A stretch of DNA of 23,294 bases from a virus (Duplodnaviria; Heunggongvirae; Uroviricota; Caudoviricetes): IMG/VR virus record IMGVR_UViG_2703718831_000001; one strand, 5' to 3'. Of this stretch, positions 1-16,495 are shown in pieces. Position 1 is the stretch's first letter; each line of letters begins with the position of its first letter. The notes beneath the pieces are model-generated. The model was not told the origin of the DNA, ran no database searches, and saw only the letters and a list, made by a program, of their open reading frames with translations. The position numbers and the translations under genes are program-made.

Positions 1-1026
1 TTAGCGATGCCAGTTGAGGTTATGAAGTGGATTTTTGGTAACGGCATCTTCCAGATGATCCGGTGCAAAATGGGCATAAATCATGGTCATTTTAATATCA
101 GCGTGTCCTAAAATATCCCTCAATACCAAAATGTTTCCGCCGTTCATCATAAAGTGGCTGGCGAAAGTGTGGCGCAGAACGTGGGTACATTGACCTTCAG
201 GTAGTTCAATTCCAGCTCGTTTTACCGCACGCTCAAAAGCCTTTCGGCATGGTGTGAATAACTTTCCTCTGTTTTTGGGTAATTCTTCATACAGTTCCTG
301 AGAAATAGGAACAGTTCGGTTTTTCTTTCCTTTTGTTTTGGTATAGGTAATTCGATACTTTGATATCTGGTTACCTTGCAGGTTTTCGGCTTCGCTCCAT
401 CTTGCCCCGGTAGCCAGGCAAATCTTGGCAATCATTAGCAGACTGGGACTTTGAGATTCAGCACATGCGTCAAGCAGGCGTTTGATTTCATCAGCAGCAA
501 GGAACGCCAGTTCACCTTCTGCAATTTTGAAAGTTGGCAGACCGGCGAGGGGGTTGGGTGCAGACCAATGTCCCAGCTTTTTCAGTGTGCCAAAAACTGA
601 GGATAGGTTACGCTGTTCAAGGTTCACCGTTCTGGGCTTAACCGGTGACATGAGCACGCCATCTTCGTTTTTGACCTCACCTTTTAATCTGGCTTCCCGG
701 TACTTTGTGAAATCACCTGCTGTCAATTCAGAAGCGATGGGATCGCCAAGTCCATTACAAATGATTTTTAACTTAGCCATTAATCGCTTAGGGTCAGCGA
801 GTGTCTGACCGTACAGGGAATACCATTGCTCAATCACTTCTGACAGTTGTCGCCGATCTTCCTTTTCTCCCAGCCAAGGTTTCTTGTTTACCTCATCCAT
901 GGTGAAATTCTCAAACGCAATGGCTTCGCCTTTCGTCGCAAATTGTTTGCGTACGCGTTTGCCATCTCTTCCGTTTGGGTAGCATTCACATAACCACTTT
1001 CCGTTCGGCTGTTTTCTGATGGTCAT
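1..1026 (-). CDS. int: Tyrosine site-specific integrase, P2/186 family
   Basis: 341-aa ORF. C-terminal catalytic region carries the tyrosine-recombinase residues (RWSE ... HVLRHTFAS ... LGHADIKMTMIYAH). It sits at the prophage edge directly downstream of the repressor gene, with 1 nt between cI stop and int start. Confidence 0.9.
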   Translation of the reverse strand: MTIRKQPNGKWLCECYPNGRDGKRVRKQFATKGEAIAFENFTMDEVNKKPWLGEKEDRRQLSEVIEQWYSLYGQTLADPKRLMAKLKIICNGLGDPIASELTAGDFTKYREARLKGEVKNEDGVLMSPVKPRTVNLEQRNLSSVFGTLKKLGHWSAPNPLAGLPTFKIAEGELAFLAADEIKRLLDACAESQSPSLLMIAKICLATGARWSEAENLQGNQISKYRITYTKTKGKKNRTVPISQELYEELPKNRGKLFTPCRKAFERAVKRAGIELPEGQCTHVLRHTFASHFMMNGGNILVLRDILGHADIKMTMIYAHFAPDHLEDAVTKNPLHNLNWHR

Positions 1027-1027
1027 A

Positions 1028-1660
1028 TCAAAGGCTCTTAATAATTTTCAGTGCGCGACCTATTACCTCAATGTCATCCAGTTCGCACTCAAACGATGAA
1101 TCATCCTGATGCACTACTAATCTGTTTCCCGGGAGTCGTGTCAATTTTACAATGCTTTTTATCCCGTCGATGTCCACTAACCACGTACCATTTACTGGTG
1201 GTGTTTGGTTGCGATCTATTAAATAAGAATCACCAGAAGTACTCACCAGCAGCAGGTTGCTTGAGTCTGAGGGGAGTATGCTGCTATCAATGATTGCTTT
1301 TCCAGCATCGACCAATAAACCACCGTTGAGAGTTGCCTTGTCAATTTCAGGAGATACAAGCTCAGAAAGAGGTTTAACCCTGCTGGAGTTCACAGAATTG
1401 ATATTTTTTTTAGGGTCAATTTTTGAACCTGGCTCGCCTTGTCCGGTGGTTAGCCACAGTAAAGAAACTCCTGTTTCCAAGGCGCACTGAATCACCCACT
1501 CTGCGGGAAAGCTATCTCTTAAGTATCTGTTTGCCATAGTGCTTTTTGATGCGCCTAAGTGATCGCAAAGTTGCTGTCTGGACTTGAAATCATAGGCTGC
1601 CATTAGTCTATGGATAGCCTCTCTTCCCCCTGTATTCTCGCCAGCTTTTACCTGTATCAT
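1028..1660 (-). CDS. cI: Phage immunity repressor, 186 CI-like
   Basis: 210-aa ORF with an N-terminal HTH-like region, transcribed divergently from the apl/cII operon and immediately upstream of int, as in 186-like lysogeny modules. Confidence 0.7.
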   Translation of the reverse strand: MIQVKAGENTGGREAIHRLMAAYDFKSRQQLCDHLGASKSTMANRYLRDSFPAEWVIQCALETGVSLLWLTTGQGEPGSKIDPKKNINSVNSSRVKPLSELVSPEIDKATLNGGLLVDAGKAIIDSSILPSDSSNLLLVSTSGDSYLIDRNQTPPVNGTWLVDIDGIKSIVKLTRLPGNRLVVHQDDSSFECELDDIEVIGRALKIIKSL

Positions 1661-2778: not shown

Positions 2779-3083
2779 GCCCCGGTGAACGCCTGAATGG
2801 ACTTAATCACATTGCGGAGTTAAGGGCGAAAGTTTTTGGCCTGAATATTGAGTCAGAGCTTGAGCGGTTTATTAAAGATATGCGTGATCCATGGGATATC
2901 AATAATGAACAAAATAAAAGGGCACTGGCTGCCATATTCTTTATGGCAAAAATTCCAGCTGAACGTCATAGCATCAGCATTAATGAGCTGACCACTGACG
3001 AAAAGCGGGAGTTGATTAAAGCAATGAATCATTTTCGTGCAGTGGTGAGCTTATTTCCCAGACGGCTAACCATGCCGAATTAA
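2742..3083 (+). CDS. Hypothetical early protein
   Basis: 113-aa ORF with a GGGGGA RBS upstream, overlapping the previous ORF by 37 nt. No recognisable motif. Confidence 0.45.
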   Translation: MAIEGTAATVPLSPGERLNGLNHIAELRAKVFGLNIESELERFIKDMRDPWDINNEQNKRALAAIFFMAKIPAERHSISINELTTDEKRELIKAMNHFRAVVSLFPRRLTMPN

Positions 3084-3150
3084 CCAACTAATGAAATTAA
3101 TGGCGTAAACCCGCCGGGCATCCCTTTATCTAAATTCAGGAGAATTGATT

Positions 3151-3384
3151 ATGCGTAATATTGAAACCCTCACGACTAAAACCGGACCGGATGATGCAGG
3201 GCTTAATATTTTACTGACAGAGGCTCGTCTGGAAGAACGCCGGGCAAGGGCTGAAGCAATGGCAGCTCGCCTTGATAGCCTGGCGTGTCATATCACATCC
3301 CGCCAGCTAAACCACGTCGAAGCAGCAGAACTGCTGCGTGTGACCGCTGAAGCAATCCAGAACGAAGCGCAGGAGATCCACTGA
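3151..3384 (+). CDS. Hypothetical early protein
   Basis: About 77 aa from the ATG at 3151, with CAGGAG RBS 8 nt upstream. The ORF-track start at 3145 is a TTG two codons earlier. Confidence 0.5.
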   Translation: MRNIETLTTKTGPDDAGLNILLTEARLEERRARAEAMAARLDSLACHITSRQLNHVEAAELLRVTAEAIQNEAQEIH

Positions 3385-3611
3385 TGGCTGATGCAATGGA
3401 TCTCGTACAGCAGCGAGTTGAAGAAGAACGCCAGCGTCATATCCGTGCTGCCCGTGCCAAAACGCCGGGCGTGTCCCGCGTGCTTTGCGTTGAGTGTGAA
3501 GCGCCAATTCCGCCAGCACGCCGTCGTGCCATTCCGGGTGTGCAGCTTTGCATTACCTGTCAGGAAATCGCAGAGCTGAAAGGCAAACATTACAACGGAG
3601 GTGCTGTATGA
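3384..3611 (+). CDS. TraR/DksA-family C4 zinc-finger protein
   Basis: 75-aa ORF with CxxC-N17-CxxC (CVECEAPIP...CITCQ) typical of phage TraR-like proteins. Start overlaps the upstream stop (TGATG); AGGAG RBS. Confidence 0.8.
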   Translation: MADAMDLVQQRVEEERQRHIRAARAKTPGVSRVLCVECEAPIPPARRRAIPGVQLCITCQEIAELKGKHYNGGAV

Positions 3612-4462: not shown

Positions 4463-5289
4463 AAGAAATGCACCACGGAATTCATCATTTCCATGGGACG
4501 CCTGTCTGGGGAAGTGCTGGCGACGTTCATCGTATTGCGGTGAGCGGAGCTGGCGCTTTCGTCTCCTATGTACGACCAGATCAGATTGCGGCGTCCATTC
4601 AGCACGCTCAGGTCGTCGGCATTGATAACGGCGCATTTTCTGCATGGGTGCGTGGGCTAAAAATTAACTGGAGTGATTTTTATAAATGGCTCCTGAACTA
4701 TTACCACCATCCTAAGGTCGCTTTTTTTGTCATTCCTGATGTTGTGGACGGAGGTGAACGTGACAATGATGCCCTGATAAACGAAGTTCCGAAAATGTTC
4801 TACGGGAAGGCAACTCCCGTCTGGCATCTGCACGAGTCAATCGATCGGCTTATCGAGCTATGTCGTGAATGGCCTCGTGTCTGCTTTGGATCGTCTGGTG
4901 AATATGCGGCTATCAGAACTGCGCACTGGCATCGTCGTATGCAGGACGCTTTTGAAGCAATTTATTGCCGACACAATTTCAAAACAGCTGTTCATGGTTT
5001 GCGCATGCTTGACGGTCGTGTGTTGGGAAATTACCCACTGGCGACTGCCGACAGTACAAATCTTGCCTGCAATGTCCCCAAATTTAATAGCAAATATCCT
5101 GAGCTGACGCGGGCTATTCAGGAGGCTGAGTATTCGCGCAATCTGACGGAAAAGGAGCTGAAAGCTGTCATTCTGAAAAACCGTTGCGCAATTTTAAAAG
5201 GTGCAATTGAAGCTGTTCGCCCACCTTCAGTTTCTGATTGGCTGTCGAATGGTTTGCAGCCTTCACAGCTCGAACTGGAGATTGCGTAA
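4459..5289 (+). CDS. Unassigned 276-aa protein; possibly a TGT-fold (DpdA-like) DNA transglycosylase
   Basis: ORF coupled to dam (GTGA overlap) and to gene A (TAATG overlap). Motifs in TGT-like order: VGIDNGAFS (cf. TDSGGFQ), [25 protein letters not shown] (cf. GIDMFDCV). No C-terminal zinc motif. The family call rests on motif resemblance only. Confidence 0.35.
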
Positions 5290-7661
5290 TGAACTACAGC
5301 TATTCCTGGAATGCTGAGAAAAAAGCAATCAATCCTTACGTAGAGACAGAAGAGCAATCTTCAGTTTCTGCGCTTTCAAACCTGATCGCTCTGTACGCTG
5401 CCGATAACGAGCAGGAACAGCTGCGCCGCGAGGCACTGAGTGATCAGGTCTGGGAGCGTTATTTCTTTAATGAATCCCGTGATCCTGTCCAGCGCGAAAT
5501 GGAGCAGGATAAGCTCATTAGTCGGGCAAAGCTGGCGCATGAGCAGCAGCGTTTTAATCCAGATATGGTCATTCTGGCGGACGTCAATGCCCAGCCTTCC
5601 CATATCAGCAAGCCACTGATGCAACGTATTGAATACTTCAGCAGCCTGGGCAGGCCAAAGGCTTATTCCCGCTATTTGCGTGAGACGATTAAGCCATGTC
5701 TGGAACGGCTGGAGCATGTACGCGACTGTCAGCTATCCACTTCTTTTCGCTTTATGGCAAGCCATGAAGGGCTGGACGGCCTGCTGATCCTGCCTGAAAT
5801 GAGTCAGGATCAGGTGAAACGCCTGTCCACCCTGGTAGCTGCGCATATGAGCATGTGCCTTGATGCAGCTTGTGGCGATTTGTATGTCACCGATGACGTT
5901 AAGCCAGAAGAAATCCGCAAGACATGGGAAAAGGTGGCAGCGGAAACCCTGCGTCTGGATGTCATCCCGCCTGCGTTTGAGCAACTCCGCCGGAAAAGAA
6001 ACCGCCGTAAACCCGTGCCCTATGAACTCATTCCGGGTTCGCTGGCGCGTATGTTGTGCGCTGACTGGTGGTACCGGAAATTATGGAAGATGCGTTGCGA
6101 ATGGCGGGAAGAGCAGTTGCGTGCTGTCTGCCTGGTCAGCAAAAAAGCATCTCCCTATGTCAGCTATGAAGCCGTGATGCATAAACGTGAGCAGCGCCGT
6201 AAGTCGCTGGAGTTTTTTCGTTCTCATGAACTGGTGAACGAAGACGGCGACACGCTGGACATGGAGGATGTGGTAAACGCCAGCAGCAGCAACCCTGCGC
6301 ATCGCCGCAATGAGATGATGGCCTGTGTTAAAGGCCTGGAGCTTATCGCGGAAATGCGCGGTGACTGCGCCGTTTTCTACACCATCACCTGTCCGTCACG
6401 TTTCCATTCCACGCTAAATAATGGCAGGCCCAACCCAACTTGGACAAATGCGACGGTAAGACAAAGCAGTGATTATCTGGTCGGCATGTTTGCTGCATTT
6501 CGTAAGGCGATGCACAAAGCCGGATTGCGGTGGTATGGCGTGCGGGTGGCTGAGCCGCATCATGACGGTACAGTTCACTGGCACCTGTTGTGTTTTATGC
6601 GCAAAAAAGACCGCCGCGCCATCACTGCATTACTGCGTAAGTTTGCCATCCGTGAAGACCGTGAGGAACTGGGCAATAACACTGGGCCGCGCTTTAAGTC
6701 TGAGTTGATTAACCCGCGCAAAGGTACGCCAACAAGCTACATCGCGAAATACATCAGTAAGAACATTGACGGGCGTGGTCTGGCTGGCGAGATCAGCAAG
6801 GAAACGGGGAAATCCCTGCGTGATAATGCTGAATACGTTAATGCCTGGGCGTCTCTGCATCGTGTTCAGCAATTCCGCTTCTTTGGCATTCCGGGGCGTC
6901 AGGCTTACCGTGAACTGCGATTGCTGGCTGGTCAGGCGGCAAGGCAACAGGGGGACAAAAAAGCAGGTGCGCCGGTACTGGATAACCCGCGCCTTGATGC
7001 CATCCTGGCTGCTGCTGATGCTGGTTGTTTTGCCACCTACATCATGAAGCAGGGCGGCGTACTGGTTCCCCGCAAATATCACCTCATCAGAACCGCTTAT
7101 GAAATCAACGAAGAGCCGACCGCCTATGGCGATCACGGCATTCGTATTTATGGCATCTGGTCACCTATTGCAGAGGGCAAGATCTGCACTCATGCCGTGA
7201 AGTGGAAAATGGTTCGTAAGGCCGTTGATGTTCAGGAGGCGGCAGCCGACCAGGGCGCTTGCGCCCCTTGGACTCGTGGCAATAACTGTCCCCTTGCTGA
7301 AAATTTGTACCAACAAGGGAAAGACAAATCAGCTGATGGAGATACCAGAACGGATATCACCCGCATGGATGACAAGGAGTTGCACGATTACCTGCACAGT
7401 ATGAGCAAAAAAGAGCGCCGGGAACTGGCAGCAAGGTTACGCCTGGTGAAACCGAAACGGCGTAAAGACTACAAACAGCGAATTACAGACCATCAGCGAC
7501 TGCAGCTCGTGTATGAACTGAAGTCCAGGGGATTTGATGGCAGCGAGAAAGAGGTCGATTTACTCCTTCGCGGCGGCAGTATTCCGTCAGGAGCAGGCCT
7601 GCGTATCTTCTATCGGAACCAGCGTTTGCAGGAAGATGATAAGTGGCGAAACCTGTATTAA
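5289..7661 (+). CDS. A: Replication initiation protein A (rolling-circle nicking endonuclease), P2 gpA family
   Basis: 790-aa ORF from the ATG at 5289 (overlapping the upstream stop). Contains an HUH-type metal motif ([13 protein letters not shown]) and a catalytic-tyrosine motif (SYIAKYISK). Size and position match P2/186 gene A. Confidence 0.9.
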
Positions 7662-7753
7662 TTACGCGGGTTAACAATTCGTGCTCTTAATAATACCAGG
7701 CATATCAGGCTGATGAGCGTAAAAAAACGTTTTACATCAGTAAGATTATTATA

Positions 7754-7773
7754 TACTGTAAATATAAACAGTG
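7754..7773. promoter_or_regulatory. LexA operator (SOS box) TACTGT-N8-ACAGTG overlapping a sigma70-like promoter
   Basis: Perfect CTGT-N8-ACAG core (7756-7771) with an AT-rich spacer (AAATATAA). A TTTACA -35-like hexamer lies at 7731-7736, and the module's first ATG is about 40 bp downstream. Confidence 0.65.
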
Positions 7774-7813
7774 GTTATGTATACAGTATTGCTTTGGTGT
7801 CATAGGAGGAAAG

Positions 7814-8002
7814 ATGCAGGACTATTTTTTGGAGTCTTTGAAGCTCCAGCGCATTGATTTTTTTCTTAAGCTTGTAGCGGCTAGTGAGTGTAGTGATGAA
7901 GAGAAGGGGCTGGCTCTGCAGTGGGTTTCTGAACTGACAGATGAACTCATGGCAAAAATCAGAACCCACGAATACAACCGCTCAATGGATGTCATCAGCT
8001 GA
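7814..8002 (+). CDS. Small SOS-module protein; possible N-terminal part of a Tum-like antirepressor
   Basis: 62-aa ORF with AGGAGGA RBS, directly downstream of the LexA box. It is in a different frame from, and overlaps the open upstream extension of, the DinI-like ORF. Confidence 0.4.
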   Translation: MQDYFLESLKLQRIDFFLKLVAASECSDEEKGLALQWVSELTDELMAKIRTHEYNRSMDVIS

Positions 8003-8012
8003 GGTGACTTTT

Positions 8013-8246
8013 ATGCGCATTGAAATAATGATCGATAAAGAGCAGAAGATTAGCCAGTCTACACTGGACGCCCTTGAATCCGAGCTTTACCGCAATCTGC
8101 GCCCCCTGTATCCCAAAACGGTAATTCGTATCCGCAAAGGTAGCTCTAACGGTGTGGAACTTACCGGATTGCAACTGGACGAAGAAAGAAAACAAGTGAT
8201 GAAAATTATGCAGAAGGTGTGGGAAGACGACAGCTGGTTGCATTAA
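8013..8246 (+). CDS. DinI-family protein (C-terminal domain type of 186 Tum)
   Basis: 77-aa ORF starting MRIEIMIDKEQ and ending KIMQKVWEDDSWLH, matching the DinI pattern (MRIEV...ETWE..DW). GAGGTG RBS. Confidence 0.7.
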   Translation: MRIEIMIDKEQKISQSTLDALESELYRNLRPLYPKTVIRIRKGSSNGVELTGLQLDEERKQVMKIMQKVWEDDSWLH

Positions 8247-8457
8247 GAAACGTTGCTGGCGTCTGAACCTGCTTCTGGCGTCAGCAAGGTTGAACCGCGA
8301 GCCTTGAGAGGCGTTAACCATAAGTAAAAAGACAGTAATCACTTGATTATCTATCAGGGCGAGACCTATGCTGCACTTTTAGTTATAACTCATAATGTAT
8401 TGAAATTATTAGAATATATGTCATTCTTAAAATGTGTATGCTTATCAAGGAGCAAGA

Positions 8458-9330
8458 ATGAAACGTGGCATTGTAGCTAATCCTAATGAAATGAGTTTTC
8501 ATAGAAATAATAGTACGGTCTATCTTGGGGCAGGTTTAACTGAGCAGGATATTAATTATTTCTGCTTTTACTGGGATGATGTGGTTATTCTAGATAGTGA
8601 AAATATTCACTCGATTGTGCCTAAAGAAAAAGAATTATTAGATAATGGGGTATTACGTAGACCTATTATGAAACATGATGGTATGCTGAATATCCAAGAC
8701 TTTCCATTTTTATATACGGAATTTCAGTTGCAGACATTGGATGAATTCAGGAAGAACGAGCCTGCTACTTATTGGCACTTTCATCAAACAGGGGAGAATT
8801 TAATATATGATAAAGAACAGAAAACGGCCCTTCAGTTGAGATTGGAGTTGTTTAATGTTCTGAGAATTCCTGATAAAGATGCTCATATAGAAGATATATT
8901 ACGTTTTAAAGATGATTGTCAGGATGATCTTAATGCGTTACATGAGTACTTAGAAAAACTGTATACTGAAGTCCTTTATTCTAGAGACCCTAATCTAACG
9001 AGGGCTAAAAATTTTTCTTTATTACAAGAGGCTGTAGTTAATCTTGATAAAGCTATCGAAGGGAAATGGAGAAATCCTATCAGAATGGGAGTCAAAGTTA
9101 ATCCAGAAGTAGATGGTGGGCAGGTTATGGAATTTTTAAAACCGTTGTACCATGCTGCTATTGCTGGTGATTCAGGCGGTATTATTCCCGGTATGGTTAC
9201 AGCCTTGGCAACCGCAATTCCAAGTTTTATAAAATTCCAACCAGAATGGGTGGGCTTTAGAGATAAGGGGCCTAAAGAATTAGCTTATCTTACCAAAGCA
9301 ACGCATAAGGGGTTGATTAAGAGAGCTTAA
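8458..9330 (+). CDS. Hypothetical 291-aa cargo protein in the gene A-cos accessory locus; contains a GDSGG motif
   Basis: ORF from the ATG at 8458 with AGGAG RBS, in a markedly AT-rich segment unlike the phage backbone. No recognisable family. C-terminal AIAGDSGGIIPG resembles a serine-hydrolase nucleophile motif. Confidence 0.6.
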   Translation: MKRGIVANPNEMSFHRNNSTVYLGAGLTEQDINYFCFYWDDVVILDSENIHSIVPKEKELLDNGVLRRPIMKHDGMLNIQDFPFLYTEFQLQTLDEFRKNEPATYWHFHQTGENLIYDKEQKTALQLRLELFNVLRIPDKDAHIEDILRFKDDCQDDLNALHEYLEKLYTEVLYSRDPNLTRAKNFSLLQEAVVNLDKAIEGKWRNPIRMGVKVNPEVDGGQVMEFLKPLYHAAIAGDSGGIIPGMVTALATAIPSFIKFQPEWVGFRDKGPKELAYLTKATHKGLIKRA

Positions 9331-9432
9331 GGCATTTTAATCGATTTTCGCAACTATATTCCTTCGTAACCACACAAGTGCATGACTATGCCGCATGAAT
9401 CCGCATGATCGTTTGAGGATCGTTTTAGCTGA

Positions 9433-9460
9433 GGCCCGCTAGGAATGGCGGGCCTTTGCT
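9433..9460 (+). terminator. GC-rich hairpin followed by a short T-tract (putative terminator)
   Basis: GGCCCGC (9433-9439) / GCGGGCC (9448-9454) perfect 7-bp stem with an 8-nt loop, followed by TTTGCTT. Confidence 0.45.
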
Positions 9461-9502
9461 TATGTCATGCAGGCGCATGAAAACCACTACATAAAGCGGG
9501 CA

Positions 9503-9521
9503 GGCGTGGCGGGGATACGAG
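9503..9521. other. Candidate cos cohesive-end sequence (GGCGTGGCGGGGATACGAG)
   Basis: The first 13 nt match my recollection of the 186/P2 cohesive ends (GGCGTGGCGGGGAAAGCAT / GGCGAGGCGGGGAAAGCAC). It lies in a GC-rich island between two AT-rich cargo segments, with gene Q oriented toward it. It is about 1.5 kb from Q, farther than in P2. Confidence 0.35.
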
Positions 9522-9660
9522 CGCGCGTTGTGGCTTGCAGCGGTGATTCTTTACATAGTGTTATCTTGAATTTATTGTAGCATTTTCGTAACAAACTAAG
9601 GTTCTTCGATTGCATAGATAGGAAAAAGTGTTTGTTTGTTAGTCACTGCTTGATTACACT

Positions 9661-9681
9661 CGTCTACTCTTGAAGTAGACG
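9661..9681. promoter_or_regulatory. Perfect 8-bp inverted repeat CGTCTACT-N5-AGTAGACG upstream of the three-gene cargo operon
   Basis: Palindrome ending about 57 bp upstream of the 9738 start codon: candidate operator or RNA hairpin. Confidence 0.35.
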
Positions 9682-9737
9682 ATAGGTATTCGCTAGCACT
9701 TTAGGGTAATCAAACAACCTGTAAAGAGAGGATTATT

Positions 9738-10310
9738 GTGCAGGTAGTTCATATAGGGTTTCATAACTGCCTTAATCGTGGCAGTTATGAGACGATACGG
9801 CAAAGCGTACCCTTTTTAAGCCGTTCAGGCCCTAAACAATGGTTAACTCAAGGTTACTATTTTTGGACTGATGACCCATACTGGGCTCATCAGTGGAACG
9901 AAGGTCATGATACGGTGATTAGTGAATTTTCTATCACCTTTGATTCAAAGGATGAGTTGCTTGATTTGGTTGGAAATGCTCGAGATATCAGGCAATTTGA
10001 AGCTATGCGTCAGAAAGTTGCCAGTACTTTGACTCGAATGAGCGCCTTGCATATCACAGTCAATCAGGTCATTAGCTTTTTTAGAGAGCTCGAGCAATCT
10101 GATGATTTTAAAGGCGTATTTCCATATGCTGCTGTTAAGGCACAAGATAGTACGAAAGTGTCTAATCTTATAAGACTTAACTTTGTAGATGAGCGCCCAG
10201 AACAGATGGTTTCATTTACCCGTCAGCAAATGTGTGTTTATGAACATGCTCGAGGTAAGATAGAGTTTAGAAGATTTATCTTTCCAGAGCATTTCTGTGA
10301 GAAGGATTAA
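9738..10310 (+). CDS. Hypothetical protein, first gene of a three-gene cargo operon
   Basis: 190-aa ORF with GTG start and AGAGAGGA RBS 5 nt upstream. AT-rich. No recognisable motif. Confidence 0.55.
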   Translation: MQVVHIGFHNCLNRGSYETIRQSVPFLSRSGPKQWLTQGYYFWTDDPYWAHQWNEGHDTVISEFSITFDSKDELLDLVGNARDIRQFEAMRQKVASTLTRMSALHITVNQVISFFRELEQSDDFKGVFPYAAVKAQDSTKVSNLIRLNFVDERPEQMVSFTRQQMCVYEHARGKIEFRRFIFPEHFCEKD

Positions 10311-10319
10311 GGAGGAAAA

Positions 10320-10553
10320 ATGCTTTCCTTTGAACAAAGAATGGCCTTACTTAACAAGGCATTACAGCAGTATACTCCTGAGTCGCTTTATGAAAAATTA
10401 AGCTCGTACCCGGCTTATGGACCAACAATCGTAAGCTACGAGCTTCCAAGCTCTGAAGGGTTCATTACATTGAGACCACGTCTGATCAATCATGCTGCTG
10501 AACGTTCAGTGGATTTCTTTTCAGATGATACTGAATTGGATTTAGCGGCCTGA
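10320..10553 (+). CDS. Hypothetical small protein, second gene of the cargo operon
   Basis: 77-aa ORF with a strong GGAGG RBS, 9 nt after the upstream stop. Confidence 0.5.
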   Translation: MLSFEQRMALLNKALQQYTPESLYEKLSSYPAYGPTIVSYELPSSEGFITLRPRLINHAAERSVDFFSDDTELDLAA

Positions 10554-10555
10554 CG

Positions 10556-10945
10556 ATGAAACTAAGATTACGGGATAATACTGTTACTCGACTGTTGTTT
10601 GTCGATGCTGAAGGGCGCAAAATCGAATCTGGTTTTGCGCTTCGATTTAAGCCCATTTTTGATGAAAATCCGCGCGAATTTTCAGTATTGTTTGATTTTT
10701 ATTACATTACTGAGAATGATCGGGCATTACGAGTCGAGTTTCAAAGTGTTTTTGAAACAGATAAAGACATTGACGATTCTTTTAAAGAATCGAAGTTTCC
10801 AGTTGTTAATGCTCCTGCGATATCGTTCCCGTTTTTACGTTCGTTTGTTGCCAATTTTTTGATGACAAGTGGGTATACACCGATCCTGCTTCCTAGCTTT
10901 AACTTTACAACTTTTGAACAGGATATCGGGAAGTTTCCTAACTGA
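10556..10945 (+). CDS. Hypothetical protein, third gene of the cargo operon
   Basis: 129-aa ORF whose ATG lies 2 nt after the upstream stop (TGACGATG), followed directly by a terminator. Confidence 0.5.
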   Translation: MKLRLRDNTVTRLLFVDAEGRKIESGFALRFKPIFDENPREFSVLFDFYYITENDRALRVEFQSVFETDKDIDDSFKESKFPVVNAPAISFPFLRSFVANFLMTSGYTPILLPSFNFTTFEQDIGKFPN

Positions 10946-10946
10946 G

Positions 10947-10976
10947 AAAAGGGCTATGTTTAGCCCTTTTTTATTA
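10947..10976. terminator. Rho-independent terminator, likely bidirectional (cargo operon and gene Q)
   Basis: GGGCTA / TAGCCC stem (10951-10966) flanked by AAAA upstream and TTTTTTATT downstream, between convergent ORFs. Confidence 0.6.
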
Positions 10977-10983
10977 AGTTGAT

Positions 10984-12027
10984 TCAATTTTTATCTAAGC
11001 TCATGGTGTAAGGCTCGAAGCGGATCACTTCTTCACCAAGCCAGTCGTTAAGCTCCTGTAGCCTTTTCTGTAGTGGGATAAGTTCGTTGCGAACAAAAAC
11101 TTTGCTGGCTTTCTCTACATCCCCAAAACCCCCAACATTATTCGGCATAATCCCCATCATCTGTGGCGGAACACGATGCGCGGCCATCATGTCATCACGA
11201 CTCACGTTCTTGATGTTCAGAAATTCATCTTTCGCTGCGACTTCTGACAACGGGATGATCTGAAGCCCGTCCTTTTTGCCGTTAGGCGAGTACATAAACA
11301 GGTTGCGGAAGTTACCCGGTCCTTTGGCGCTTTTCATCGCGTGGCGGAGGTTGTTCACGTCCTCCTGGTTCTGCGCGGCATCGGTCATGTACATGATGAA
11401 GCCAGCATGACTGCCGTTTATGTAATACTTTCGACGGAACAGCGTGGCGGACTCATTGAGCAGGGCGGACGGAATAGCAGAAAGATAGCCGGGCAGGCCA
11501 TAGATCTCCTGATTTATGTCCGGTTCCATCAGATGGAAAATGCTGCCTTTCGTGAACTGATACGGCTGCGTGGTCATGCCGTATTGCACAAACCAGTAGG
11601 TATCCAGGTCTAACCCGCGTCGGGTGTATTTTGCCAGCGCAGGCTCAAGGGCGATAACTTCACCGAAGCGGTTAGTGCGTTTCTCCAGGTAGGCGTTACC
11701 AAATACCAGATAGTCCTGCACAAAACGCGAAAAAGCCTGCTGGCTGAGCAGCGGGTGAGGGATGTAGGTGCTGGTCAGAATGTTGCATTTCACCGCAATT
11801 GGTGAACTGTGATGCACGGCAGCGCGGAAGGTGCGCGCCAGTCCGTCAAAGCTGACAGGAGGCTCATACCAGCGATCTGTCTGTACGCATTCCACATAGT
11901 CCAGCAGTTCGCGGCGGTCAAGTACAGGAACGGGATCACCGAAGCTGAATGCTTCGGCTGAAGTCTGGCTTTTATGCTTGAGCTGATTCGTCGCCGCAGC
12001 GCGGTTTTTCTTACTCTTTCCCATCAA
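10984..12027 (-). CDS. Q: Portal protein, P2 gpQ family
   Basis: 347-aa ORF, same size as P2 gpQ, coupled to the upstream terminase ATPase gene and lying beside the cos-like region. Confidence 0.85.
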   Translation of the reverse strand: MMGKSKKNRAAATNQLKHKSQTSAEAFSFGDPVPVLDRRELLDYVECVQTDRWYEPPVSFDGLARTFRAAVHHSSPIAVKCNILTSTYIPHPLLSQQAFSRFVQDYLVFGNAYLEKRTNRFGEVIALEPALAKYTRRGLDLDTYWFVQYGMTTQPYQFTKGSIFHLMEPDINQEIYGLPGYLSAIPSALLNESATLFRRKYYINGSHAGFIMYMTDAAQNQEDVNNLRHAMKSAKGPGNFRNLFMYSPNGKKDGLQIIPLSEVAAKDEFLNIKNVSRDDMMAAHRVPPQMMGIMPNNVGGFGDVEKASKVFVRNELIPLQKRLQELNDWLGEEVIRFEPYTMSLDKN

Positions 12028-13790
12028 AAAATCTCCACAATATTGCTGGTATTGGCGGACTCGCCCTGCAGCGGTTCGTTAAACAGTGCGTGCATCGTTG
12101 CCCAGGCCAGATCGGCGTGGCTGGCTTCTTCGCTGCGGCTGGCTTCATAGGTCGGGCGGTTGCCACTGGCGGTGGTGGCGCGACGGATTGCCATAAATGA
12201 CTGCGCTATGTCGGTGTGTCCGGCGTCAAACTCCAGACGACGGTGACTGATAATGTCGTAGGCTTTGAGTACCAGGGCGTTTTTAACGTTGGGGTTGTAG
12301 ACAAACTCCCGGACGGCAGGAAAGAACGCTTTCACGTTCTCGTAAACCCCGTGACCGACACCTGTTGAGTCGATGCCGATATAGGTCACGTTGTACTGTT
12401 CGGTCAGTTTTTTGATGGCGTCAGCCTGGGCGCGGAAGTCCATCCCGCGCCACTGGTGACGCTCAAGAATGCGAAACTTACCGCCTGGCACGGCTGGCGG
12501 TGCCACCACCACGCATCCGGCGCTGTCGCCGTTCTGCGTACCTTTTGCCGGGTCATAACCGATCCACACCTCGCGCCAGCCAAACGGGCGCAGGGCCAGT
12601 GCATGAAAGTCGGTCCAGACTTCCCAACTGTCCACCATGCACGCCTGCAGTTCGCTGAGCGGGAACACGGACGCGAGATCGTCCACGAACTCGCACATCA
12701 GCAGGTTCTGGTATTCGTCCGGGCTGTACTCCATGCGTAGCTGGTCGAGGTCGAACAGGTTACAGCCGCCGCGCACCGCATCTTCCACGGTGACTATCTG
12801 GCGGTATTGCCCGTCTGCGCACAGCAGGCCGGGGGCCAGATTGCTGTGGGACAGGTCGATGTCCACCTTGTCGGCTTTGTTGCGTCCACGGTTGAACAGC
12901 GCACCGGACCAGAACGGATAAGCACTGTGGGTCAGGCTGGATGGCGTGGAAAAATAGGTTTGTCGCCATTTTTTGTGAATAGCCATACCGGAAGCCACTT
13001 TACGCAACTCCTGAAATTTCGGTATCCAGAAATATTCATCCAGATACAGGTTGCCGTGATAACTCTGGGCAGTGCGGGCATTGGTGCCGAGGAAGTAAAG
13101 CGTGGCACCGTTAGGAAGCACCATCGGATCACCTTTCAGCTCCACCTCCACTTCTTTGGCGAAGTCGATGATGTACTGCTTAAAGACGTGGGCCTGTGCC
13201 TTGCTGGCGGAAAGGAAAATCTGGTTACGTCCGGTCAGCAGGGCGTCAATCAGGGCTTCACGGGCAAAATAGAAGGTTGCGCCGATCTGGCGTGACTTCA
13301 GCAGGTTGCGGATGCGGTTGGTTTTTCCGGCTTCCCACCAGTGGCGCTGGTAGTTGAACATGGAGGAATGGAAGATTTCTTCCAGCTTCTCAATCTGTTC
13401 ATCGGTGAAAACATTCTTTTCCGGCTGACGGCGTGGGCCTTTGTTGCGGTTGGCGACGTTAGGGTTTAAGTCGGCTTCGTTGCCGCCATTGTTAAACTTG
13501 CCGATCCGCGCGTGGCGCTCCGACTGGCGCGCCAGCAGGTCAATCTCTTTGAAATCTTTCCCTTCTTTGTGCTCCTTCATAATGAGCTGGCAGTAGCGTG
13601 CGGCGGTGGTGAGCTGCATCTGATCCAGCGGCCCATAGTCACCCCACTTGTCGCGTTTTTTCCAGCTGTGAACAGTTGCAACTTTCTCGCCCAGCATTTC
13701 AGCAATGCGGGCGACGCGGTATCCCTGAAAGTACAGCAGCATGGCCTGCCGACGGGGATCGAGATCTGCGGGTGTCAGTGTGGTGTTCAT
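12024..13790 (-). CDS. P: Terminase large (ATPase) subunit, P2 gpP family
   Basis: 588-aa ORF (P2 gpP is about 590 aa) in a P-Q operon divergent from O-N-M. Confidence 0.85.
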   Translation of the reverse strand: MNTTLTPADLDPRRQAMLLYFQGYRVARIAEMLGEKVATVHSWKKRDKWGDYGPLDQMQLTTAARYCQLIMKEHKEGKDFKEIDLLARQSERHARIGKFNNGGNEADLNPNVANRNKGPRRQPEKNVFTDEQIEKLEEIFHSSMFNYQRHWWEAGKTNRIRNLLKSRQIGATFYFAREALIDALLTGRNQIFLSASKAQAHVFKQYIIDFAKEVEVELKGDPMVLPNGATLYFLGTNARTAQSYHGNLYLDEYFWIPKFQELRKVASGMAIHKKWRQTYFSTPSSLTHSAYPFWSGALFNRGRNKADKVDIDLSHSNLAPGLLCADGQYRQIVTVEDAVRGGCNLFDLDQLRMEYSPDEYQNLLMCEFVDDLASVFPLSELQACMVDSWEVWTDFHALALRPFGWREVWIGYDPAKGTQNGDSAGCVVVAPPAVPGGKFRILERHQWRGMDFRAQADAIKKLTEQYNVTYIGIDSTGVGHGVYENVKAFFPAVREFVYNPNVKNALVLKAYDIISHRRLEFDAGHTDIAQSFMAIRRATTASGNRPTYEASRSEEASHADLAWATMHALFNEPLQGESANTSNIVEIF

Positions 13791-15844: not shown

Positions 15845-16495
15845 ATGAGCCTGAGTCCCGCACGGCAGCATCGCCTGCGCGTCCAGGCTGAACAGGCCGC
15901 CCGCGAGGGCGGCAGTGTTCGCCACGCGTCGGGCTATGACCTGATGCTGCTGCAACTGGCGGAAGACCGCCGCCGTCTCAAGGGTGTTCAGTCCACGGTC
16001 AAAAAAGCGGAAATCAAGGTGGAGCTGCTGCCGAAGTACGCCGACTGGGCAGAGGGTGTCCTGGCTGCCGGAGGCGCACAGCAGGATGACGTGCTGATGT
16101 ACGTGATGCTGTGGCGCATTGATGCCGGAGATTATGCCGGGGCGCTGGAGATCGGGCGTCACGCCCTGCGTCATGGCTGGGTGATGCCGTTAGGTAACCG
16201 CAACGTGCAGACCGTGCTGGCAGAGGAAATGGCAGATGCAGCCCAGAGCGCAATGCTTGCCGCCACCGGCTTTGATGCCGATCTGTTGCTGCAGACGCTG
16301 GAGCTGACAGACGGTATGGATATGCCGGACCAGTCACGGGCGCGTCTGCATAAAGCGATTGGCGCTGTCCTGAGTGAAAACAATCCGGCGTCCGCCCTTA
16401 ATCATCTCAACCATGCGTTACAGCTCGATCCCCGCTGTGGCGTGAAAAAAGATAAACAGCAGCTGGAGCGCAGACTGCGCAATGACAGCCGCTGA
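15845..16495 (+). CDS. M: Terminase small (endonuclease) subunit, P2 gpM family
   Basis: 216-aa ORF starting 3 nt after the N stop; position and size match gpM. Confidence 0.8.
   Translation: MSLSPARQHRLRVQAEQAAREGGSVRHASGYDLMLLQLAEDRRRLKGVQSTVKKAEIKVELLPKYADWAEGVLAAGGAQQDDVLMYVMLWRIDAGDYAGALEIGRHALRHGWVMPLGNRNVQTVLAEEMADAAQSAMLAATGFDADLLLQTLELTDGMDMPDQSRARLHKAIGAVLSENNPASALNHLNHALQLDPRCGVKKDKQQLERRLRNDSR

Follow-up and report, generated by a model that had tools for sequence, protein, structure and literature searches.

The cos regions of P2-family phages are described as having a 55-bp core (quoted from Ziermann and Calendar, 1990, in PMC5694545), and the same source, citing Dodd and Egan (1996) and Nakayama et al. 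(1999), passes on the suggestion that the interval between cosL and the gene Q is a hotspot for the uptake of foreign genes. Both Rousset et al. (2022, PMC9122126) and Vassallo et al. (2022, PMC9519451) present the gpA-gpQ region as a hotspot of defence genes next to cos, and it has been re-analysed in NAR in 2026 (PMC13586616). The toxin-antitoxin-chaperone system PD-T4-9/CmdTAC has been validated experimentally as a defence against T4, according to PMC9519451, and the satellite P4 is packaged by the terminase of P2, according to PMC9122126. SEN8 is a temperate isolate whose genome was sequenced from virions, and its genome announcement gives as cos the exact 19-nt sequence discussed below (PMC5427200); a literature search for experimental mapping of the ends of this 19-mer or cos type found only that announcement.

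The window analysed here, a stretch of 23,294 nucleotides (IMG/VR record IMGVR_UViG_2703718831_000001), holds most of a P2-family prophage. A conserved block within it, at 9377-9528, is very probably the cos packaging site of a prophage of the Fels-2/SopEPhi/SEN8 type (Felsduovirus-like). This identification is based on the homology of the whole block to annotated cos junctions, since the 13-mer at the start of the cohesive end is insufficient alone. As a feature, this cos is ordinary, very common, and already known.

Gene order and the cognate terminase

The main features of the window around the block are as follows.

1 to 1026, minus strand: integrase
1028 to 1660, minus strand: 186-type CI repressor
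5238 to 8246, plus strand: left backbone (Pfam), with replication gene A (5238 to 7661), a small ORF, and a DinI/Tum-like gene ending at 8246
8434 to 9376, plus strand: left cargo slot (virion right end), with a DUF6236 ORF (8434 to 9330; Pfam DUF6236, E = 1e-20) and a 46-bp tail
9377 to 9528, plus strand: putative complete cos module, the conserved block common to all relatives, with unrelated cargo on both sides
9529 to 10983, plus strand: right cargo slot (cosL to Q), with a leader and the PD-T4-9/CmdTAC genes (PADLOC, Pfam)
9738 to 10310, 10320 to 10553, and 10556 to 10945, plus strand: CmdTAC genes A, B, and C
10984 to 12027, minus strand: portal, homologue of P2 Q (Pfam Phage_portal)
12024 to 13790, minus strand: terminase large subunit, homologue of P2 gpP and expected cos-nicking enzyme (Pfam Terminase_5, Terminase_6N, and Terminase_6C, full length)
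15845 to 16495, plus strand: terminase small subunit, homologue of P2 gpM and expected cos recogniser (Pfam Phage_term_smal, full length)

The left backbone has Pfam matches to Phage_GPA (E = 9e-128) and DinI (E = 1e-22), and its gene order is identical in the relatives. Gene P is followed, towards higher positions, by the scaffold gene O, the capsid gene N, the terminase small subunit M, L, and the tail genes, and the ORFs for the integrase, CI, A, Q, P, O, N, M, and L are all full length, with strong Pfam matches. The synteny is P2-like, running from gpA and DinI through a slot, cos, and another slot to Q and P, which are transcribed from the opposite strand towards cos. The orientation is P2-like as well, with the 19-mer on the top strand and Q and P downstream of it on the bottom strand.

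The packaging proteins are of the SEN8 type. The large subunit gpP is 99.7% identical to that of SEN8 and 63% identical to those of P2/186, with corresponding values of 94% and 49% for gpM and of 89% and 62-65% for Q. A terminase of SEN8 type agrees with the lineage-specific 3' half of the overhang, which reads TACGAG (versus AAGCAY). The window spans only 23 kb, and the remainder of the prophage could be defective.

Extent and composition of the block

The preliminary description of this DNA, made from the letters alone, had singled out a GC-rich segment at 9360-9540 between two AT-rich cargo units. Such a segment is present (55% GC), but its limits are those of the 152-bp block at 9377-9528 (56% GC). 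The flanks are poorer in GC, with 36% in the left cargo, 36% in the spacer at 9529-9737, and 40% in the PD-T4-9 operon, while gpA has 53% and Q plus P 55%. Because the backbone has a GC content of 53-55%, the "island" is a piece of backbone with ordinary phage-backbone composition, and it is the AT-rich cargo that is compositionally anomalous.

The relatives examined were 80 IMG/VR loci gathered by an exact match to the 25-mer GGCGTGGCGGGGATACGAGCGCGCG. Over the 76 distinct loci among them, conservation per column climbs to 0.8-1.0 at 9377/9378 and falls to 0.3-0.5 past 9527/9528, and matches to the block in E. coli likewise stop at position 151-152 of the query. The core at 9474-9528 is nearly invariant in these 76 loci, a figure in which 9503-9527 is invariant by construction, being the search pattern, and only 9474-9502 lies outside it. 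The conservation of the 126 bp upstream of the 25-mer, on the other hand, constitutes independent evidence, because this part is absent from the search pattern.

The block is widespread. It is present in 1239 of 5426 complete E. coli genomes (coverage of at least 80%), and a sensitive BLAST search matched it in 78 phage records, all of them P2-family, from Salmonella, Klebsiella, Escherichia, Yersinia, and others. Its sequence is 100% identical to that of the block in another E. coli prophage, and the site occurs as a single copy within the 23-kb window. In RefSeq, this cos is either unannotated or overlaid by spurious short ORFs. Recognising it would fix, by homology, the virion ends of a very common type of prophage in E. 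coli, Salmonella, and Klebsiella.

Homology to annotated cos junctions

Two elements within the block carry the comparison with annotated cos sites.

9474 to 9528, plus strand: most conserved cos core, about 55 bp, made up of GCATGAAAACC...AAAGCGGGCA, the 19-mer, and CGCGCG (76-locus conservation)
9503 to 9521, plus strand: predicted 19-nt 5' cohesive end GGCGTGGCGGGGATACGAG (gap-free alignment to annotated cos 19-mers)

Junctions joining the right and left genome ends of P2, 186, PSP3, and P4 were assembled from cos-annotated records and aligned with the window, Fels-2, SopEPhi, SEN8, Yersinia MLG42, and three E. coli prophages. Compared with the window without gaps, the stretch from -29 to +26 about the nick is identical at 42/55 positions in 186, 43/55 in PSP3, 40/55 in P2, 41/55 in P4, and 52/55 in SEN8, and identity is at background past +27 (5-12 of 34 over positions +27 to +60). 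An alignment with the cos regions of P2, 186, and PSP3 is what the preliminary description had proposed as a check of its cos reading, and the 40-43 identities in 55 found with these three phages, together with the 19/19 match to the SEN8 cos, argue for that reading. We take 9474-9528 to be the putative counterpart of the 55-bp core quoted in PMC5694545, with limits that may be the same. The flanking core is asymmetric towards the virion right end, as expected for a P2-family cos.

The 19-mer at 9503-9521 is homologous to the P2-family sequence GGCG(A/T)GGCGGGGAAAGCA(C/T) at the aligned position, and it matches that of 186/PSP3 at 15 of 19 positions, that of P2/P4 at 14 of 19, and the cos annotated in SEN8 at all 19. 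Its first 13 nt had been reported to match both 186 and P2; this is true of 186 (13/13, as for PSP3), but P2 matches at 12/13, like P4, with A for T at position 5. By itself, the 13-mer is non-significant, as at least one match turned up in 71 of 100 shuffles when two mismatches were allowed, and it is solely the block-wide homology that rules out a chance match. The SEN8 record starts exactly at GGCGTGGCGGGGATACGAG and ends at the base homologous to 9502, although its feature label, "putative cos site", is derived from annotation. From this homology we infer nick sites at 9502/9503 on the top strand and at 9521/9522 on the bottom strand.

Repeats and hairpin inside the block

Upstream of the cohesive end, the block contains several short repeats and a palindrome.

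9380 to 9408, plus strand: three direct GCATGA (TGCAT-type) repeats, with copies at 9380, 9393, and 9403
9407 to 9425, plus strand: lineage-specific tandem GATCGTTTGAG/GATCGTTTTAG repeat with two Dam GATC sites
9431 to 9460, plus strand: GC-rich hairpin and short T run (RNA fold of 9431-9456)
9465 to 9480, no strand: inverted and direct GCATGA pair (TCATGC and GCATGA, with AGGC between them) just 5' of the core

The direct repeats mentioned in the preliminary description are found as stated, CCGCATGA at 9391 and 9401 and GATCGTTT at 9407 and 9418, and the GC hairpin that it had reported lies at 9431-9456. However, CCGCATGA belongs to a larger GCATGA family of five copies, four on the plus strand (9380, 9393, 9403, and 9475) and one on the minus strand (9465). 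These five, out of 19 GCATGA copies in the whole window, are crowded into 101 bp, a length expected to contain about 0.08 copies, and the motifs are practically invariant among 67 variants of the block. Three TGCAT motifs stand at the equivalent position in 186, PSP3, P2, and P4, and the pair at 9465-9480 aligns with GTCATGCAACTGCATTAAAA of 186/PSP3 and with P4. Being clustered and almost invariant, the GCATGA copies are the best candidates for the binding sites of the terminase small subunit. The GATCGTTT tandem repeat, by contrast, is kept in blocks of the Fels-2 type and absent from 186, PSP3, P2, and P4.

Short repeats flanking the block (ATTTTCGCAAC at 9344 and ATTTTCGTAAC at 9582; TTCGTAAC at 9363 and 9585) were also considered and are probably due to chance, because their copies lie in cargo modules that have their best matches in different prophages, and because the relatives lack these repeats.

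The hairpin folds at -25.6 kcal/mol (z = -4.3), and none of 200 shuffles was as good. Its stem of 9 GC base pairs is nearly invariant, the core stem being 93-98% paired across 59 variants while the loop varies freely. The rare changes in the stem are mostly one-sided, mainly to G-T wobble on the plus strand, and the 59 variants include no two-sided compensatory changes that would prove covariation. In the relatives the element reads GCCCGCCAG-NN-CTGGCGGGC-TTTTGC; the tail of the window's hairpin, CCTTTGCTT, is weaker than the TTTTGC of most of them, and a simple terminator scan made no call here. We regard the weaker calls of the same scan, at 9526-9542 on the plus strand and 9499-9484 on the minus strand, as noise. 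A palindrome occupies the aligned place in 186, PSP3, and P4. We read the hairpin as a putative plus-strand intrinsic terminator for the transcript of DinI and the left cargo, and it may additionally or instead serve as a protein-binding palindrome. In 186, a terminator annotated as t95b lies just upstream of the block.

Proposed working of the site and alternative readings

By analogy with P2, 186, and P4, the terminase formed by gpM and gpP would, after replication, recognise the approximately 126 bp upstream of the cut, that is, the GCATGA/TGCAT repeats, the central palindrome, and the GCATGAAAACC...AAAGCGGGCA core. It would then nick the two strands 19 nt apart (9502/9503 on the top strand, 9521/9522 on the bottom strand), leaving 5' overhangs GGCGTGGCGGGGATACGAG. 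The resulting linear virion genome would start at 9503 and proceed through CmdTAC, Q, P, and onwards, and its other end would consist of gpA, DinI, DUF6236, and the block. The embedded GC hairpin would probably end the rightward DinI/cargo transcript before cos. On the left-end side, the signal would extend only about 6-7 bp (CGCGCG) past the overhang, which would permit insertions of foreign DNA directly abutting cos at that end.

How much sequence past the overhang is needed is suggested by P4, whose similarity to P2 likewise covers about -125 to about +26 and then gives way to its own cargo. Since P4 shares only that extent and is nevertheless packaged by the P2 terminase, a block that ends at +26 would be a complete signal and not a truncated one. 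Conservation in the present lineage stops 6-7 nt past the overhang, as it does in P4, and phages with cargo between this cos and Q are viable (2 kb in SEN8, two ORFs in SopEPhi). The packaging signal of this lineage would accordingly be a compact module of 152 bp with nearly all of the recognition sequence on the right-end side, which would explain how cargo of the CmdTAC type can directly follow the cohesive end without harm to packaging.

The reading that competes most directly with a working cos is that the block is a relic, homologous to cos but without function, in a prophage that has lost the ability to package, in which case it would say nothing about virion ends. Only part of the prophage is included in the window, cleavage is predicted from homology, and the hairpin tail and a few other positions deviate from the majority sequence. 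Still, the 54-bp core is the same as in all 76 loci and SEN8 save at 3 of 55 positions, every GCATGA motif is intact, and the ORFs from the integrase to L are full length with strong Pfam matches; the identical block in another E. coli prophage also argues against decay. We therefore consider a relic improbable. Less probable still is that the block is kept mainly as a terminator, another regulatory element, or a short ORF, with an incidental likeness of the 19-mer to cos. The hairpin is indeed strong and its changes are mostly of the wobble-compatible, one-strand kind, PGAP and other pipelines annotate short hypothetical CDSs over the block, and the 13-mer is statistically unremarkable by itself. 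However, the hairpin accounts for only 26-30 bp of the block, whereas about 150 bp are homologous to the cos junctions that experiments have defined in 186, P2, and P4, with the 19-mer correctly placed and oriented. In one genome, the annotated ORF is interrupted by a stop codon, and Rfam returned no match for a structured RNA at E <= 1 over 9200-9800. A terminator role is in any case compatible with cos and no alternative to it.

Satellites resembling P4 have a similar cos with cargo directly after it, so the site might be thought to belong to such a satellite or to a second element inserted beside the prophage. Against this, the block is flanked by gpA/DinI on one side and Q/P on the other, within one gene order of P2 type, psu, delta, sid, and alpha genes are absent nearby, and whole phage genomes show the identical arrangement, which leaves this reading a negligible chance.

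Cargo on both sides of cos

The right slot holds a known defence system. All three genes of the operon were recognised by PADLOC as PD-T4-9/CmdTAC on sequence similarity (PD-T4-9_A, 2.8e-96; _B, 5.1e-39; _C, 1.1e-60), the product of gene C has a SecB-like Pfam match just under the curated cut-off, and a promoter-like site lies in the leader at 9550-9578. In the left slot, the DUF6236 ORF had no PADLOC match. The locus shows what defines the published hotspot, namely variable accessory genes between gpA and gpQ beside cos and an anti-phage system recognised by PADLOC. Given the P2-like orientation, the single DUF6236 ORF would lie at the right end of the virion genome and the three-gene operon between cosL and Q, much as the preliminary description had supposed.

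The same description had called this an unusual place for cargo on the grounds that Q normally abuts cos. This is true of P2, 186, and PSP3, where the Q stop lies about 167-178 bp past the 19-mer, but not of the lineage to which the window belongs. Q was located in 54 related loci, and only 7 of these have a short interval between cos and Q (148-173 bp). In the other 47 the interval is 0.5-3.5 kb (median 1685 bp), compared with 1462 bp for the window. Named phages have genes here too: one ORF of 1.7 kb in Fels-2, two ORFs in SopEPhi, two genes in SEN8, and one gene in vB_EcoM-813R9. The left slot is empty in 18 of 53 loci, with 77-78 bp from DinI to the block. Defence cargo on both sides of cos is thus normal in this lineage and has already been described.

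Mosaic structure and the hypothesis of cargo exchange

The two cargo units of the window occur together in no complete E. coli genome of the collection, and they can be traced to different relatives. Positions 4800-9528 differ from a prophage of E. coli MEI005 at only 6 of 4729 bp (99.87% identity), and past the block that prophage carries an ABC-three-component system in place of CmdTAC. Positions 9475-13600 are 99.8% identical to a prophage of E. coli MFDS1006657, in which the left slot is empty and 14 of the 98 positions at 9377-9474 differ from the window. Judging from these alignments, the prophage is a mosaic of a MEI005-like left arm up to 9528 and a MFDS1006657-like right arm from 9475 onwards, with a crossover that maps within the invariant cos core at 9475-9528, overhang included.

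The flanks of the block also vary across the lineage. Across 81 loci there are 46 types of left flank and 65 types of right flank in 78 combinations, and one left-flank type is combined with 12 different right types. The single published hotspot is divided by cos into a left and a right slot whose contents combine almost independently of each other, which is a modest addition to what has been described.

That left and right arms meet at the cos core bears on a published hypothesis of cargo exchange. In their Discussion, Rousset et al. (2022, PMC9122126) speculate that the swapping of cargo is driven by cohesive ends, either cut by terminase or newly injected, when P2-like phages and satellites reside in the same cell. 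A breakpoint in the cos core fits this speculation and would lend it support at the sequence level. It is equally compatible with plain homologous recombination within the longest stretch of identity, which predicts the same breakpoint interval. It is conceivable, though on balance unlikely, that cos itself is the exchange point of the gpA-gpQ hotspot, beyond being a landmark within it. The block's variable part may be linked to the left or to the right flank, and both models of exchange predict the same pattern of linkage.

Comparison with P2-family phages and satellites

The closest known sites are those of a group of named phages and prophages. In SEN8, Fels-2, SopEPhi, RE-2010, those of the Klebsiella 4LV2017 type, and Yersinia vB_YpM_MLG42, the 19-mer with the CGCGCG after it has exactly the sequence seen in the window. 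The upstream 126 bp are 84-94% identical in phages of the SEN8/Fels-2 type, which also share the GCATGA repeats, the GATCGTTT tandem repeat, the hairpin, and the cargo slots on both sides. Compared with SEN8, only the cargo differs: from cos to Q, SEN8 carries a hypothetical gene together with an HNH endonuclease where the window has CmdTAC, and across cos it has a DNA-binding protein in the place of DUF6236.

The architecture and orientation are also those of 186 and PSP3 (Eganvirus) and P2 (Peduovirus). Like the window, these phages have a trio of TGCAT motifs (about -125 to -95), the central palindrome, (TCATGCA...)TGCATKAAAACC...AAAGYGGGC, and a 19-nt overhang starting with GGCG(T/A)GGCGGGGA and followed by GCGCG. 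The differences lie in positions 14-19 of the overhang, which read TACGAG in the window and AAGCAT or AAGCAC in 186/PSP3/P2, and in the stretch from the overhang to Q, which is conserved among P2, 186, and PSP3 and is replaced in the window by 1.46 kb of cargo.

P4 resembles the window in that its conservation with the cos of its helper ends about 7 nt past the overhang and accessory or defence genes come next, gop starting at +247 in P4 and the CmdTAC ORF at +236 in the window. However, P4, with its gop/beta/cII hotspot, has a 19-mer of the P2 type and, as a satellite, encodes neither terminase nor structural proteins, while the window belongs to a phage of the helper type. Finally, the papers on the gpA-gpQ region (PMC9122126, PMC9519451, and PMC13586616), in the parts that present it, treat as one hotspot the same locus that in the window is divided by cos.

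Mosaic structure of the prophage

The prophage in the window is a mosaic of two parents. The left arm (window 4800-9528) has 99.87% identity with a prophage of E. coli MEI005, a match that ends at 9528, and the right arm (window 9475-13600) has 99.8% identity with a prophage of E. coli MFDS1006657, beginning at 9475. These end points put the crossover between the arms inside the invariant cos core (window 9475-9528). The two cargo units, the DUF6236 gene to the left of cos and the PD-T4-9 operon to its right, were found together in none of the complete E. coli genomes in the collection searched.

Genes to the left of cos

The features of the left side are the following:

Window 7814-8002: conserved 189-bp ORF, upstream of the DinI-like gene
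Window 7941-8246: DinI-like gene, mechanical ORF (101 aa from 7941)
Window 8434-9330: DUF6236 protein, left cargo (298 aa)

The DUF6236 gene and the cos block are found at >99% identity in more than 20 E. coli genomes among the matches listed, and some genomes with this pair have another right-hand cargo. PADLOC gave no match for the DUF6236 protein; we consider its gene an uncharacterized candidate hotspot gene that may have a role in defense. In E. coli ZH177 (NZ_CM125652.1, 3135578-3137583), an IS1B insertion cuts the region of DUF6236 plus cos in two.

The mechanical DinI-like ORF is longer than the annotated DinI genes of its relatives, which are 234 bp. Since the Pfam match begins only at residue 38, translation probably starts close to 8013. 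The 189-bp ORF precedes the DinI gene in Fels-2, SEN8, and E. coli prophages, as it does in the window.

The cos block in other records

In genome annotations, the cos block is either bare of any feature or overlain by short "hypothetical protein" CDSs (for example, 2519-2704 and 3018-3161 in the related loci L009 and L004, respectively), one of which contains an internal stop and is marked as a pseudogene. These calls are probably spurious. Among the annotations examined, only SEN8, 186, P2, and PSP3 label the block as cos. It is also present on nonmobilizable E. coli "plasmids" similar in size to a phage genome:

NZ_CP019275: 37,446 bp
NZ_CP019257: 36,172 bp
NZ_CP019246: 45,156 bp
NZ_CP148400 and NZ_CP148585: about 55 kb

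CP019275 appears in the phage collection too, and these records possibly represent P2-like phage genomes in excised, circular form that were assembled as plasmids.

The metagenomic viral contig L082 (IMGVR_UViG_3300011853_000021) contains the cos 25-mer (our exact search string) twice, in opposite orientations and ~3.2 kb apart:

3441-3465, - strand: copy one
6704-6728, + strand: copy two

One copy is followed by a PD-T4-9 operon with 95-97% amino acid identity to that of the window and the other by the portal gene Q. Such an arrangement may have come about through a genuine rearrangement, or the assembly may have fused two related phages into a chimera.

Comparison with known cos regions

The cos block includes one further element:

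Window 9407-9425: tandem GATCGTTTGAG/GATCGTTTTAG repeat, with two Dam methylation sites

This repeat is conserved in the cos blocks of the Fels-2/SEN8 type, whereas the cos regions of 186, PSP3, P2, and P4 lack it.
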